Shown one piece after another: positions 1 through 6,883 of a stretch of DNA of 6,883 nucleotides. Numbering within the stretch: the first letter of the stretch is position 1; each line of letters opens with the position of its first letter. The DNA comes from Salmonella phage IKe. Below the pieces are notes generated by a model, which did no database searches, was not told where the DNA came from, and saw only the letters and a program-made list of their open reading frames with translations. The stretch lies in sequence record NC_002014.1. One strand, given 5' to 3'. The translations under genes and the position numbers were made by a program.

Positions 1-6
1 GAATTC

Positions 7-1272
7 ATGATCGACATGCTGGTGTTAAGGATACCTTTTAAAAGCTCTCTTGTGTCGGAGCGTCTTGATTCTAAGGGAAATTATGTTTCCCATGTGAATC
101 TTGCTGAGGTTGCACGACTCTCCGGTCTGACTCTCGCAGCACATACCGTTGAATATGCCATTGATGGTGATTTAACTGTATCCGGCCTTAAGCATCCTTA
201 CGAATCTCTTCCGTCTCATTATGCGGGTATCGCGCTGAAAATTTTTGAGGGCGGTAAAAACTTCGAGCCTTGTGTAGAGTTGAAAGCATCTCCGGCGAAG
301 TTGTTACAAGGTCACAACGTTTTTGGCCCGACTTCCTTTGAATTGTGTGGATTGGAGTTTTTCGGCGCTTTTGCGGCGGCTATGCCTGAACTGTATGACT
401 TGTGCGATGTAACTAATACTGTAGTTGGTCGTATTGACGTTACATTTAGTGCAAAGGTTGCTAACGATCATATTGCTAATCAGGTCATTTCCTTCCTTCG
501 TAATGTTTCTAATGGTCAGACCAAAAAGACTCGCGCCCTTGATTATGAAACCACTGTTATGTGGAACGAAGGGAGTCGCCATCGTACCCTTGTTGCATAT
601 TTGAAACATCATGAGGTACAGGCTCAGATCAAGAGACTACAAAAAAAGAAAAGCTCTCATCTTACGATCTACGAAAAAAATTGCTTGGAAGTATTAAGCA
701 ATCCTGATTTGCAATTATATGCAGTTGGCCTTGTTAGATTTGAGGCTAGACTTCATACACGTTTTTTTGAAAATTTTGGCTTGCCTAGAAAGTTCTTTGA
801 TATAGTTAAATATCAAGATAATTATGAAAGTGGCTCATTTAATTTAATTTGTGACCTGTGGAAAAAATCGTTTAAAGATCTGTTTGATGCCTTTAAAGGT
901 TCTGATATGAATGTTTATGATGATTCTAAAGTTTATGATGCTTTAATAAATAACTTTTCTTCTGTTACTAAATCAGGCAATATTTCTAATTCCAAAGCTA
1001 ACCGTTTATTTGGTTTTTATCGTCGCTTGGTGAATGAAGGTTATGATAATGTAGCTCAAACGATGGAACGCACTACATTCTGGCGCTCTCTAAAGGAATT
1101 AACTTCTGTAGGTTTGTCAAAGGCTCAATTAATGAACCTTTCGACGGATAATAATGTAGTGCCGTTGGTTCAAATGATTAATGTTGATTTTTCTCAGCAA
1201 TATCCTGAATGGTATGTTGAACCGGTATCTATTTTTAATCGTTCTAATGTAGTCAGCATTAACGCTGCTTAA
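7..1272 (+). CDS. II: Replication initiation endonuclease gpII (rolling-circle nickase/ligase), 421 aa
   Basis: Full ORF from the track. The N-terminus MIDMLVLRIPF and long stretches (TVEYAIDGDLTVSGL, LRNVSNGQTK, RHRTLVAYLKH, GLVRFEAR, FGFYRRLVNEGYD, QLMNLSTDNNVVPLV, INVDFS) match f1/M13 gene II protein as I recall it. It is the first gene after the IG, as in Ff phages. Confidence 0.97.
   Translation: MIDMLVLRIPFKSSLVSERLDSKGNYVSHVNLAEVARLSGLTLAAHTVEYAIDGDLTVSGLKHPYESLPSHYAGIALKIFEGGKNFEPCVELKASPAKLLQGHNVFGPTSFELCGLEFFGAFAAAMPELYDLCDVTNTVVGRIDVTFSAKVANDHIANQVISFLRNVSNGQTKKTRALDYETTVMWNEGSRHRTLVAYLKHHEVQAQIKRLQKKKSSHLTIYEKNCLEVLSNPDLQLYAVGLVRFEARLHTRFFENFGLPRKFFDIVKYQDNYESGSFNLICDLWKKSFKDLFDAFKGSDMNVYDDSKVYDALINNFSSVTKSGNISNSKANRLFGFYRRLVNEGYDNVAQTMERTTFWRSLKELTSVGLSKAQLMNLSTDNNVVPLVQMINVDFSQQYPEWYVEPVSIFNRSNVVSINAA
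907..1272 (+). CDS. X: gpX, in-frame internal restart product of gene II (C-terminal 121 aa)
   Basis: In-frame ATG at 907 (…KGSD-MNVYDDSKVYDAL) aligns with the f1 gene X start (MNIYDDSAVLDAI). AAGG lies 7-8 nt upstream (896-899). Nested gene X is established for Ff phages, but its expression here is inferred by homology only. Confidence 0.7.
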   Translation: MNVYDDSKVYDALINNFSSVTKSGNISNSKANRLFGFYRRLVNEGYDNVAQTMERTTFWRSLKELTSVGLSKAQLMNLSTDNNVVPLVQMINVDFSQQYPEWYVEPVSIFNRSNVVSINAA

Positions 1273-4837: not shown

Positions 4838-6151
4838 ATGAAATTACAGGCTGAAAAGAAATTAATTTTTGGGTATGTTGCTCTCTGTTTCCTTATGACA
4901 TTAGGCATTGCATTTAATGTTCTGGCTGATCCGGTCAATTTAAATAACGCTCCGGTGCGTTCGTTTGTGCAATGGTATTCGCAAAAATCTAATAAAGCTG
5001 TTGTTGTAAATCCTGATGTTAAAGGAAATATTACTGTATTTAATGCAGATGTTAATCAGGCCAATATTGATGATTTCTTTAAGTCTGTTCTTAACGCTAA
5101 TGGCTTTGTTCTTATGGCTGGTGATCCTTCAGGTGTGTCTACTCCGTCAAAGCTGCCTTCTCAACAGACCGATAATGATGATGATTATGAAGATTCCGCG
5201 GATTATGTTCCGGTTGGTGATTCTGTTCCGGTATCTGCCCAACCGCAAAAGCCTTTAGATCTTACCGTTCGCAATTTTAAGTTAACCCGCGTGCGTTCTT
5301 CTGACGTTCTTCCGCTTGCCAAAATCTTTGTCGATTCCAACGGTGGCGGCGATGTTATTGATTACCCAGGCAATAACAGCCTGTTGGTTTCTGGTTCTGC
5401 TGCTATCATGAATGCCCTGGCTGATTTCATTACGTCAATCGACGTTGCCCGTGATCAGGTTCTTATTCAGTCGCTTATGTTTGAAACCAGCTTAGTTAAT
5501 GGCGTGGATCTTTCTTTTGCTGCCGGTTCTGCTTCTGGTGATAAGGTCGCAGGCGGTTTCAATACATCTGCTCTTGGCACTGCACTTTCAACTGCTGGCG
5601 GTTCCTTCGGCATCTTTAACGGTAATGTTTTAGCGTTATCCATTCAGGCGGTAAAAAATGACTCTAATTCAAAAGTTATTTCTACCCCGCGCATCCTGAC
5701 GCAATCAGGTCAGACAGGTTACATCTCTGTAGGTCAAAATGTGCCGTTTGTCACTGGTAAGGTAACGGGTGAGGCTGCAAATGTTAACAACCCTTTCCAG
5801 ACCATTGAGCGCCGCGATGTTGGTGTTTCTCTTAAGGTGACGCCTGTTGTCATGGGTAATGGTCAGCTTGTTCTTACCATTGATACCAAAGCTGACTCCC
5901 TAACCAGTCAAATGACTGCTAGCGACATCATTACTAATCAGCGTCATATGCAAACGACAGTGCAGATAAAAGACGGTCAGACGCTTTTGCTTGGTGGTCT
6001 TATCGATTCCAATACAACTGACGGTAATCGCTCTGTACCTTGGTTTGAAAGCGTACCTGTGATTGGCTGGTTGTTCCGCAGCCATAGTGATTCGCATAAC
6101 GAAAGAACTATGTTTGTTCTCCTTACCGCGCACGTTATTAAGGCGCTTTGA
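4838..6151 (+). CDS. IV: Outer-membrane secretin gpIV, 437 aa
   Basis: ATG at 4838 with GAAGG (4827-4831) 6 nt upstream, 2 nt after the gene I stop. The signal peptide runs up to …NVLA|DPV. The secretin core closely matches f1 pIV (GGSFGIFNG, STPRILT, SVGQNVPF(V/I)TG, ANVNNPFQTIER, DGQTLLLGGL). The TTG at 4832 used by the ORF track is less likely as the start. Confidence 0.95.
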   Translation: MKLQAEKKLIFGYVALCFLMTLGIAFNVLADPVNLNNAPVRSFVQWYSQKSNKAVVVNPDVKGNITVFNADVNQANIDDFFKSVLNANGFVLMAGDPSGVSTPSKLPSQQTDNDDDYEDSADYVPVGDSVPVSAQPQKPLDLTVRNFKLTRVRSSDVLPLAKIFVDSNGGGDVIDYPGNNSLLVSGSAAIMNALADFITSIDVARDQVLIQSLMFETSLVNGVDLSFAAGSASGDKVAGGFNTSALGTALSTAGGSFGIFNGNVLALSIQAVKNDSNSKVISTPRILTQSGQTGYISVGQNVPFVTGKVTGEAANVNNPFQTIERRDVGVSLKVTPVVMGNGQLVLTIDTKADSLTSQMTASDIITNQRHMQTTVQIKDGQTLLLGGLIDSNTTDGNRSVPWFESVPVIGWLFRSHSDSHNERTMFVLLTAHVIKAL

Positions 6152-6197
6152 GGCTGCCGGGTAGGTGCGCTAGCCCTGCCCGTAGACTCTTGCGCCT
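6141..6197 (+). other. Long imperfect GC-rich hairpin across the gene IV stop; candidate packaging (morphogenetic) signal and/or gene IV terminator
   Basis: Hand-folded pairs are 6141-6146/6192-6197 (AGGCGC/GCGCCT), 6150-6152/6187-6189, 6154-6155/6184-6185, and an 8-bp inner stem 6158-6165/6175-6182 (CGGGTAGG/CCTGCCCG, one G.T). In Ff the packaging hairpin is the first IG element after gene IV, so the assignment here is positional only. The true signal may extend further toward about 6275. Confidence 0.35.
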
Positions 6198-6275
6198 CTC
6201 CGTGTGCGCGGCTTCGATACAACGTATGTTCCTCGGTTTTCACATCCATAATGGCTGCGGTGCTAACGGCTAGTT

Positions 6276-6376
6276 AGTACGTGATAATTTTCACGTACTC
6301 CGCCCTTCTCTTTCGGCGTTCTCCGGCGTCGAATCGTCAAACGCTAAATCGTGGGGGCCCCTTTGGGCCGATTTAG
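6276..6376 (+). other. Complementary (-) strand origin region (RNA-polymerase primer hairpins)
   Basis: A perfect 9-bp hairpin AGTACGTGA(6276-6284)/TCACGTACT(6291-6299) is followed by a pyrimidine-rich tract. A second hairpin CTAAATCG(6344-6351)/CGATTTAG(6369-6376) encloses GGGGGCCCCTTTGGGC. The stretch GTCAAACGCTAAATCGTGGGGGCCCCTTTGGGCCGATTTAGTGATTTACGACAC closely parallels f1 GTCAAGCTCTAAATCGGGGGCTCCCTTTAGGGTTCCGATTTAGTGCTTTACGGCAC, which is part of the f1 (-) origin. Confidence 0.65.
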
Positions 6377-6409
6377 TGATTTACGACACTCCATAAATAT
6401 CCTTGTTAT

Positions 6410-6455
6410 GGGTGATGGTTCACGTAGTGGGCCATCGCCTTGTTAGACGTTTTTT
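6410..6455 (+). other. Highly conserved IG block shared with Ff (stem GGTGATGG/CCATCGCC)
   Basis: GGGTGATGGTTCACGTAGTGGGCCATCGCC (6410-6439) is identical over 30 nt to the f1 ori sequence as I recall it. It is followed by TTGTTAGACGTTTTT versus f1 CTGATAGACGGTTTTT. It can form an 8-bp stem 6411-6418/6432-6439 with one G.T pair. Confidence 0.6.
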
Positions 6456-6553
6456 TCTTTTGGTGATCGATAAGCGATTTTGTAGTTTGACGGTCGTAGA
6501 CGAAAGGACGTGGAAGCGGCGATTTTGGATCTGGCAGTCGGCTCGGTCGTGGT

Positions 6554-6597
6554 GAGTCCACTATGTTTAATAGTGGACTCTTGTTGCATTTTGCAAC
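6554..6597 (+). other. Viral (+) strand origin core: gpII nick-site hairpin plus adjacent hairpin
   Basis: GAGTCCACTAT(6554-6564)-gttta-ATAGTGGACTC(6570-6580) is followed by GTTGCA(6583-6588)-ttt-TGCAAC(6592-6597). f1 has GAGTCCACGTTCTTT^AATAGTGGACTCTTGTTCCAAACTGGAAC. By homology the nick is predicted between T6568 and A6569. Confidence 0.85.
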
Positions 6598-6600
6598 GTG

Positions 6601-6798
6601 CTACAGCCCTCTCTCCTTCAAAACTCCTTCGATTGCTTCTTCAAGTTTATGTTTTATAAGATAATTTATCAGTTCTGATTTTTTTATAGGCAAACCAGCT
6701 CTTTTTGTTGCTTCGACAGTTGCCGTTACCAGTAAATTTTGCATGTGCCTATTGATAGTTACTGTAGTTCTACTGCCTCTTTTACCTAGTGTATTCAT
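6601..6798 (-). CDS. Hypothetical 65-aa protein, possible ribbon-helix-helix (CopG/Arc/MetJ-like) DNA-binding regulator, divergent from gene II
   Basis: This is the only ORF of 65 aa or more that does not overlap a canonical gene. On the minus strand, ATG (6798-6796) is preceded by AGGA (6810-6807) with an 8-nt spacer. The sequence fits strand-helix-turn-helix: SRTTVTINRH (alternating beta pattern), MQNLLVTATVEATKRAG, then LPIKKSELINYLIKHKLEEAI, where the SELI-type helix start is typical of RHH helix B. Against a real gene: it is short, rich in rare codons (AGA x4, AGG, ATA x3, CTA), and has no convincing sigma70 promoter by eye. No search was possible. Confidence 0.4.
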   Translation of the reverse strand: MNTLGKRGSRTTVTINRHMQNLLVTATVEATKRAGLPIKKSELINYLIKHKLEEAIEGVLKERGL

Positions 6799-6828
6799 AA
6801 AATAAATCCTAAAGATCTTTACAAATAG

Positions 6829-6856
6829 TTGCGTTTAAATTTACATGTGTTAAATT
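6829..6856 (+). promoter_or_regulatory. Candidate gene II promoter (-35 TTGCGT, 16-nt spacer, extended -10 TGtTAAATT)
   Basis: TTGCGT lies at 6829-6834, TG at 6848-6849 and TAAATT at 6851-6856. This predicts a start near 6863 and a leader of roughly 27 nt that wraps to the gene II ATG at 7. The motif match is by eye only. Ff phages have a strong promoter directly upstream of gene II. Confidence 0.3.
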
Positions 6857-6883
6857 ACGCACATGGTGAGTGTTTGAGTGCTT

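Follow-up and report, generated by a model that had tools for sequence, protein, structure and literature searches.

An other-strand gene beside gene II of the filamentous phage IKe as a probable ribbon-helix-helix repressor of the RstR type

Introduction

Eleven types of the repressor gene rstR are distinguished, and eight of them were each shown in a lux assay to repress their own ig-2/rstAB promoter (PMC11509585). The ribbon-helix-helix (RHH) protein ParG of plasmid TP228 recognises 4-bp ACTC boxes, which are separated by 4-bp spacers, occur in either orientation and are coated cooperatively by RHH dimers (PMC3413123). Among filamentous phages, annotation alone has pointed to an Omega-like RHH ORF in one Pseudomonas inovirus (PMC10534721).

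The DNA analysed here, referred to below as the window, is a complete Ff-like inovirus genome of 6883 nt, that of Salmonella phage IKe (NC_002014.1), linearised 6 nt ahead of gene II. Sequenced in 1985, IKe has served ever since as a reference filamentous phage; it is described with ten or eleven genes, all on one strand, and an intergenic region regarded as non-coding. Our ORF map agrees with the initial annotation in placing every canonical gene (II/X, V, VII, IX, VIII, III, VI, I and IV) on the + strand. The initial annotation had further pointed to an extra ORF on the other strand and considered a small repressor at this place to lie outside the classical Ff picture, which is consistent with a literature that calls this region of IKe intergenic (PMC7307601, PMC7697814); no description of the ORF was found in the searchable literature. 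Here, we bring together comparative evidence that this ORF encodes a small RHH protein of the family of the 'environmental' RstR of CTXphi (RstR-env) and probably represses gene II through short GAGT boxes, a reading to which we assign a probability of roughly 0.6.

The ORF and its surroundings

The features discussed are collected in Table 1. The 65-aa antisense ORF with its AGGA element, as given in the initial annotation, proved exact in coordinates and sequence, and its stop codon (6603-6601) indeed lies 3 nt from an origin hairpin, the second of the two. It is divergent from gene II, the intergenic region between them being 91 nt long in the window. The + strand has nothing that overlaps it.

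Table 1. Features of the window and of the ORF product
Feature	Position	Strand	Details
ORF, 65 aa	6601..6798	-	ATG start; read from the sequence, translation matches the one quoted
AGGA, Shine-Dalgarno-like	6807..6810	-	8 nt 5' of the ORF ATG; TCCT on the + strand
Best sigma-70 candidate for the ORF	6825..6853	-	-35 TTAACA 6853-6848, 17-nt spacer, -10 AACTAT 6830-6825
(+) strand origin core	6554..6597	+	Identity to the Ff origin core
Nick-site hairpin, Ff-like	6554-6580	+	GAGTCCACTATGTTTAATAGTGGACTC; part of the origin core
Second origin hairpin	6581-6597	+	TTGTTGCATTTTGCAAC; abuts the ORF stop
Gene II promoter	6829..6856	+	-35 TTGCGT 6829-6834, 16-nt spacer, extended -10 TGT-TAAATT 6848-6856
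Candidate operator, part 1	6865..6883	+	8-bp tandem boxes GGTGAGTG, TTTGAGTG, CTT...; GAGT cores 6868-6871 and 6876-6879
Candidate operator, continuation	1..6	+	Degenerate third box (CTT)GAATTC, just before the gene II ATG at 7
Gene II, replication initiator	7..1272	+	Phage_CRI family; presumed regulatory target of the ORF product
Predicted secondary structure of the ORF product	residues ~10-16, 17-34, 40-62		beta-strand (RTTVTIN), helix A, helix B

The minus strand holds further ORFs of 102, 100, 90 and 77 aa inside + strand genes and, since longer antisense ORFs exist in the window, the length of the ORF is no proof of a gene. The earlier caution that short ORFs arise by chance in AT-rich DNA is thus justified for length alone; it fails once conservation, frame-specific purifying selection and conserved position are considered. 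The unusual codon usage, raised as another reservation, is real and can be explained as strand bias viewed from the opposite strand: at third codon positions, the + strand genes have T in 49% of cases and the ORF has A in 47%, so that the odd codons follow from the third-position bias of the + strand, complemented. An Rfam scan of 6100-6883 returned no RNA family. A 13-mer repeat (6735-6747 and 6837-6849) is not kept in the Erwinia phage PEar4 and is probably due to chance.

Homologues and selection

Judged from its homologues and their pattern of substitution, the ORF is almost certainly a genuine protein-coding gene. A search of 5.8 billion proteins yielded 14 homologues with 63-97% identity, and a profile search enlarged the ORF family to 35 members, the lowest identity being 33%; a profile scan of 1.8 billion representatives returned this small family only. 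The first 14 come from contigs of 2.4-12.8 kb, and the inovirus contigs of the family measure 6.3-8.3 kb; all relatives are found on free phage-sized contigs or 'plasmids', and those checked carry the name 'hypothetical protein'. In the index of the contig collection, two 90%-identity clusters of the protein occupy 142 and 112 blocks. A collection of 15 billion proteins lacks the exact window protein; a 97%-identical sister (P0001) is present on an independent contig. Scanning genome_contigs and metagenome_contigs with the family alignment gave no confirmed locus, and viral-contig scans using two family members (P0017 and P0020) gave no matches.

In a codon alignment of 10 genomes, the frame of the ORF shows a mean pS of 0.53 and a pN of 0.17 (ratio 0.32) and contains 0 stops. 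The four other frames of the same alignment give pN/pS values of 0.87-1.53 and 22-74 stops; the mirror frame on the opposite strand, which has its third positions in common with the ORF, reaches the same ratio, but with 14 stops. The first, second and third codon positions differ by 0.21, 0.13 and 0.41 per site, respectively. Over 66 genome pairs, pN/pS is 0.45 for the ORF as compared with 0.29 for gene II, at similar divergence depth, and dN/dS of the ORF stays below 1 in all comparisons made. The initial annotation had named conservation with synonymous-biased substitutions as what to look for, and a frame broken in close relatives over conserved nucleotides as what would speak against a gene. 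Every computational check that it suggested turned out favourable. Relatives with as little as 33% identity still have an intact ORF, and only in its frame are substitutions biased towards synonymous ones; the data are the opposite of the unfavourable case, with nucleotides that diverge strongly and a protein that is retained.

Predicted fold and relation to RstR

The ORF product very probably adopts the RHH fold. The initial annotation had recognised an RHH-like layout, and structure prediction returns the strand-helix-helix order of this superfamily, an alternating N-terminal strand followed by two helices with a short turn; the predicted monomer leaves this strand without a partner, as is to be expected of an RHH protein. 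The general RHH pattern would turn V13 and I15 towards the core and R10, T12, T14 and N16 towards the DNA groove. Among the 14 close homologues (alignment A3), R10, T11, T14 and N16 are invariant and T12 is nearly so.

Curated resources recognise this family poorly. A Foldseek search of the PDB with the ORF product returned no significant match, and neither Pfam, NCBIfam nor HMMER against PDB sequences assigned the window protein significantly to a family. RHH_3 matched 5 of 24 members below threshold (best E 0.013) and RHH_5 matched one; NCBIfam offered nothing relevant, and the protein belongs to none of the curated RHH families (RHH_1/3/5, ParG, Omega_Repress) by significant match. The sole significant family match is phrog_2503 (function unknown, E 2e-7). 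Since the PDB searches were negative and the curated hints remained below threshold, we regard the family as an RHH family outside Pfam and NCBIfam.

A named relative was found among phage repressors: by sequence comparison, the ORF product is homologous to an RHH-type RstR, the 'environmental' allele of CTXphi. In a Foldseek search of predicted viral structures (BFVD), the top match was the CTXphi RstR C9E7D4, with an E of 3.5e-3, a probability of 1.0, a TM score of 0.76 and 34% identity over 62 columns. The record GQ466611 contains an 86-aa CDS (ACV95583.1) annotated as 'environmental RstR; cryptic phage CTXphi transcriptional repressor', whose gene is divergent from rstA and lies 69 nt upstream of it; read from an internal Met, the protein begins MEKRGDTTVRINEQRKMRLQREAIKIGSATGELLKISDIVNYLIDQY and comprises ~64 aa. 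BLASTP aligns 58 residues of the window protein with RstR-env, 31% of them identical (pairwise E 3e-7). Comparing the ORF family profile with RstR-env by hhalign gave a probability of 98.6%, a value that is not independent because the profile includes P0037, the family member with 60% identity to RstR-env; P0037 itself was recovered by an RstR-free profile, with a database-wide E of 1.6e-10. With RstR-env as query, tblastn finds the pre-CTX rstR and the 'RstR-like putative transcriptional regulator' of the Vibrio phages VAI1 and VAI2. It also retrieves proteins listed as hypothetical in several inoviruses from mouth and gut and, within the 'major intergenic region' of the classical coliphage If1, an ORF that is not annotated.

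The comparison of the IKe ORF with rstR, and of its divergent placement with that of rstR and rstA, had been offered as an analogy; both go further than this, the protein showing sequence homology to one RstR class and the gene standing divergently upstream of the replication initiator. According to a comparison of primers, none of which is identical, the GQ466611 allele is not among the eight rstR alleles tested (PMC11509585). Only the reverse primer of rstR6 aligns to the 3' end of RstR-env, with one indel, and the termini of rstR6 look RHH-like. The backing that the lux assays lend to the class of the ORF is therefore indirect. A dif-like site, the mark of temperate dif-integrating phages, occurs neither in the window nor in any fetched locus, and IKe does not integrate (PMC7307601).

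A replication module with gene II and the origin

All related genomes that were inspected have the ORF divergent from a replication-initiator gene, with a short intergenic region in between; where measured, 91-136 nt lie between the start of the ORF and the conserved MID[MK] start of gene II. In all relatives of the Phage_CRI type, the ORF stop is located 0-8 nt past the second origin hairpin, and the nick motif TTTAATAGTGGACTCTTG follows ~20 nt past this stop. TCCTA on the + strand, at the Shine-Dalgarno-like site of the ORF, is kept in most relatives. Distant inoviruses with other coat and assembly genes (L007-L010 and L013) show nucleotide similarity to the window only in gene II and the ORF and, because just these two stay similar, we consider ORF, origin and gene II as one replication module. 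The gene of P0037 (locus L021) adjoins a Rep_trans (RstA-type) initiator instead of Phage_CRI. Ff has no ORF at the corresponding place, where it carries the AT-rich 'domain B' enhancer.

The closest annotated records to the window are those of the Erwinia phages PEar1, PEar2, PEar4 and PEar6, which are described as IKe-like in the literature and whose pII is 98.8% identical. Compared with PEar4, in whose record the ORF is unannotated, the flanks of the ORF are 92-100% identical, whereas the N-terminal half of the ORF is far more diverged, the dS of the ORF reaching 1.29. From this contrast in divergence, we take the diverged half to be a patch of recombination with another allele.

The gene II promoter and the candidate operator boxes

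The promoter of gene II follows a conserved pattern, TTGnnn-16-TGnTAnnnT; in most clades, 30-36 nt separate the end of its -10 element from the gene II ATG. Between this -10 element and the ATG, the window carries the 8-bp repeats GGTGAGTG, TTTGAGTG and CTTGAATT(C), which would cover roughly positions +1 to +26 of the gene II transcript. We regard the GAGT boxes of this leader as candidate operators. TGAGTG has two sites in the whole genome, which are adjacent and both lie in the candidate operator. In the window alone, repeat statistics do not place the number of boxes above chance, and the argument for an operator is thus comparative.

Nearly all clades show their strongest autocorrelation at a period of 8 (mean 0.47 vs ~0.25). 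Same-strand TGA[AG]T-N3-TGA[AG]T pairs occur in the gene II intergenic region of 11 of the 14 genomes and are confined to it in 10 of them; single TGA[AG]T sites number ~35 per genome, from which, by our own arithmetic, ~0.1 chance pairs would be expected. An additional cluster lies upstream of gene V in L017. The boxes lie on the opposite strand in L017 and L019, ten copies in both orientations are found in L020 (a number reached by 0 of 100 shuffles), and Dulem virus 52 has five GTGAGCA copies in both orientations. Such flips of orientation argue for a site in double-stranded DNA rather than for an RNA element. A generic finder of repeated 7-mers was significant for L020 only.

Three clades (L024-L026) are devoid of TGA[AG]T pairs, which counts against the operator reading. 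The same clades have an altered beta-strand, RTNVTLS in L025 and RTTFTLN in L024 and L026, and other period-8 repeats are present in L025 and L026, those of L024 being ambiguous. Ff, in which the ORF is missing, has no such 8-bp repeats. Since the boxes are situated in the leader of the gene II mRNA and overlap a Shine-Dalgarno-like GAGTG, they could instead, or in addition, be an element acting at the RNA level, for example a target of the gene V protein. The segment GGUGAGUGUUUGAGUGCUUGAAUUC of the gene II leader RNA is a candidate target of this kind.

The palindrome CATGTG-N10-CACATG (6844-6865), which brackets the -10 element of gene II, was also considered as an operator and was dropped because a half-site spacing of 16 bp suits RHH binding poorly and the palindrome is not general across clades; one possible compensatory change was seen in L008.

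Proposed function and alternatives

Most likely, in our view, the ORF product represses gene II transcription by acting on the 8-bp GAGT boxes; expression in IKe, binding to the boxes and repression are inferred from the comparison of sequences. The double-stranded replicative form would serve as template for transcription of the ORF, which runs divergently from gene II, and dimers of the ORF product would bind cooperatively to the boxes, which follow each other every 8 bp just 3' of the gene II -10 element. Binding across the transcription start and the leader would lower gene II transcription and probably also the activity of the overlapping promoter of the ORF itself. The expected outcome is a negative feedback on the level of pII and hence on the copy number of the replicative form, possibly combined with immunity to superinfecting phages that carry the same module.

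In the window, the promoter on the strand of the ORF is weak. The reservation of the initial annotation that no good promoter is present holds for the window: a stricter consensus scan of 6400-6883 found no promoter-like site. In relatives, a -10 element of the form TATTAT, TACAAT or TATAAT stands 12-18 nt before the ORF ATG, which would leave a very short leader; in the window, this conserved element beside the AGGA is degraded by a 1-nt deletion (GATC-TTTAGGA), which counts against the repressor reading. On another reading, the gene family is real but the IKe copy is a poorly expressed or decaying remnant of little function, an alternative that we hold to be unlikely. Three further observations point the same way. 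First, position 40 of the window protein is K, whereas at least 90% of the relatives have Q at this nearly invariant position, a substitution that again counts against a working repressor. Second, dN/dS between the window ORF and its closest sampled relative is 0.29 (10 nonsynonymous and 9 synonymous changes), as opposed to 0.03 for a neighbouring pair of relatives. Third, the PEar records carry truncated copies: in those of PEar1, PEar2 and PEar6, half of the ORF is absent and, if these records are correct, the ORF is dispensable for plaque formation, which likewise speaks against the repressor reading. Against a decaying copy stand the intact ORF, whose start, Shine-Dalgarno element and stop occupy conserved positions, the nearly identical sister on an independent contig, and a dN/dS that nowhere reaches 1. 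Moreover, an alternative promoter for the ORF, TTAACA-17-AACTAT (Table 1), is common to the IKe-like group; it is weak, was predicted by hexamer scoring and fully overlaps the gene II promoter.

RHH accessory proteins such as TraY, NikA and ArtA assist HUH relaxases at oriT. By analogy, the ORF product might be an accessory factor of the origin, which binds near the (+) origin, bends or organises the DNA there and helps pII to nick; it would then fill the role of the AT-rich 'domain B'/IHF enhancer of Ff. We judge this to be slightly less likely still. Tandem boxes are found only beside the gene II promoter, ~290 nt from the nick site, and none at the origin, where a lone copy of the box overlaps a hairpin arm (GAGTCCAC). 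The closest named homologue is a transcriptional repressor, and the family also accompanies a Rep_trans initiator with a different origin. Very improbable, finally, and rejected by us, are a chance frame over a cis-acting replication enhancer, a purely cis-acting element being excluded by the frame-specific purifying selection and the high synonymous divergence (pS 0.56), and the antitoxin of a toxin-antitoxin pair, since a partner ORF for a toxin of type II is missing, with the origin directly behind the stop of the ORF and gene II ahead of its start.

Implications

The map of IKe is altered by the addition of a conserved gene that lies on the opposite strand and is linked to gene II and the origin; this gene sits unnoticed in two classical model phages, IKe and If1. 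The repressor reading supplies a concrete candidate for what sets the copy number of the replicative form or excludes relatives. It also provides a name, and a function open to testing, for the protein listed as 'hypothetical' on phage-sized contigs and 'plasmids' of clinical Enterobacterales, and it bears on IKe-based vectors and display systems, which carry the segment as 'origin' DNA. At least one RstR class proves to be of the RHH rather than the helix-turn-helix type, and the finding links classical coliphages with the RstR immunity of CTXphi.

It appears to us an even bet that, in both IKe and If1, the other strand encodes a working RstR-type repressor that throttles gene II. If true, the IKe/If1 group would run a transcriptional circuit of copy-number control or immunity that is absent from Ff, and classical episomal coliphages would be close kin of the CTXphi-like temperate phages, having kept the repressor after integration was lost. 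In the form of phage-sized 'plasmids', this module is widespread among clinical isolates of E. coli, Salmonella (Typhi among them), Klebsiella and Citrobacter.

Comparison with known systems

Among plasmid-borne RHH proteins, CopG of pMV158 is co-transcribed with repB in one operon, upstream of the replication gene, whereas the IKe ORF lies on the strand opposite to gene II and is divergent from it. Helix A of the ORF product is also ~6 residues longer than that of the CopG-type RHH repressors, such as Omega of pSM19035 and ORF56 of pRN1. The operator architecture of ParG is that of the IKe boxes, GAGT being the complement of ACTC and the spacers being 4 bp in both. Its sequence similarity to the ORF product is not significant: a profile match to a ParG sequence covered the whole RHH domain with a probability of 55%, and one family member matched Pfam ParG with an E of 0.036. 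A ParA/ParF ATPase and a centromere, the companions of a ParG-type protein, do not accompany the ORF, the window holding only canonical inovirus genes, nor is there a partitioning task for it.

In filamentous phages, the same slot is occupied, presumably for the same task, by the helix-turn-helix (HTH) repressors RstR-ET of CTXphi and the Pf4 repressor, and by the 'repressor' of Pseudomonas phage 42-1, an HTH protein whose gene is divergent from a Phage_CRI gene II. Because their fold differs (XRE-like HTH), these proteins are analogous, and not homologous, to the ORF product.

The closest counterpart is RstR-env of CTXphi/pre-CTXphi together with the RstR-like proteins of VAI1/VAI2, which share the core size and the strand-helix-helix layout of the ORF product. 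The beta-strand reads RTTVTIN in the IKe ORF and DTTVRIN in RstR-env. The partner initiators differ, being Phage_CRI (pII) in IKe and Rep_trans (RstA) in CTXphi, and so do the host phages, the IKe type being non-integrating and without dif, unlike CTXphi. The box sequence, too, is different, GAGT in IKe as against GCATGC in RstR-env. Nevertheless, the gene of RstR-env holds the same position as the IKe ORF, divergent from and just upstream of the initiator gene, and its ig-2 contains short boxes at 8-bp phasing (CGCATGCA and CGCATGCG), as does the region between the ORF and gene II.

Possible rearrangements at the origin and extension of the ORF

In the Erwinia phage PEar4 (L001), the right half of the (+) origin is displaced by about 100 nt upstream (6400-6520), the breakpoint lying exactly at the nick site of the gene II product, pII, and the same change removes the stop codon of the RHH ORF, giving a 95-aa readthrough product. 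In the records of PEar6 (L002), PEar2 (L003) and PEar1 (L004), aligned to window 6470-6700, the nick motif is wholly absent, and the ORF also lacks its C-terminal half. These changes are either pII-mediated rearrangements or artefacts of short-read assembly. The stop codon has been lost in some relatives, for example in the 91-aa family protein P0025 as well as in L001, the frame then running through the origin hairpins (...CKMQQESTIKHSG...); a C-terminal extension is therefore a recurrent feature.

Two side observations concern the nick hairpin. The 8-mer TGGTGAGT occurs twice in the window, one copy abutting the left arm of this hairpin and the other forming the first operator-like box of the gene II leader. 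Within the 110 nt left of the hairpin, and directly upstream of it, about 29 nt (GATCTGGCAGTCGGCTCGGTCGTGGTGAGT) are duplicated in tandem in the close relative L014.

The origin is also matched outside phages, by tiny E. coli plasmids (2.1-2.3 kb; H38-H49, for example NZ_CP041120.1, L023), over 52 nt at 88-92% identity covering the nick hairpin and the second hairpin. Their only annotated gene is 'protein rep', and the match suggests rolling-circle plasmids which share the IKe phage origin or are able to exploit it.

Positions of the features discussed
Feature	Sequence	Position
TGGTGAGT, hairpin copy	window	6550-6557
TGGTGAGT, leader copy	window	6864-6871
Plasmid match	window	6556-6608
13-nt repeat, both copies	window	6735-6747; 6837-6849
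N-terminal divergence hotspot	window vs L001	6700-6798
Second box cluster	L017	about 1526-1542 nt from ORF start
ig-2	L033 (GQ466611)	1213-1281
RHH-family ORF of If1	L034 (NC_001954, reverse complement)	1484-1674
Further intervals of the RHH/TnpA/ORF348 entry	L034 (NC_001954, reverse complement)	962-1405; 1-753

Boxes, repeats and allele classes

In ig-2 of the RHH-type 'environmental' RstR, GCATGC boxes recur with a phasing of 8 bp (CGCATGCA|CGCATGCG ... GCATGCAA), and similar GCATGC motifs are found in L021, a locus adjoining a Rep_trans initiator; the boxes probably serve this allele class as an operator. In the related locus L017, four 8-bp TGA[AG]TAAG boxes between genes II and V form a second cluster, which could be a second operator or reflect a role of the boxes at the RNA level. 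One copy of the 13-nt direct repeat AATTTTGCATGTG / AAATTTACATGTG lies within the ORF and the other in the spacer of the gene II promoter; the repeat lacks conservation in PEar4 and probably arose by chance.

If1 is a classical coliphage. Its 'major intergenic region' harbours an unannotated member of the RHH family, followed by origin-like hairpins, and an IS200/605-like TnpA together with ORF348 (TnpB-like) is inserted directly upstream of it.

The ORF's N-terminal half stands out as a hotspot of divergence when the window is compared with PEar4 (dS of the ORF 1.29; flanks 92-100% identical), and the PEar4 allele is of the type found in other Inoviridae (P0008, P0009). The pattern is one of mosaic allele exchange and recalls the diversity of rstR.
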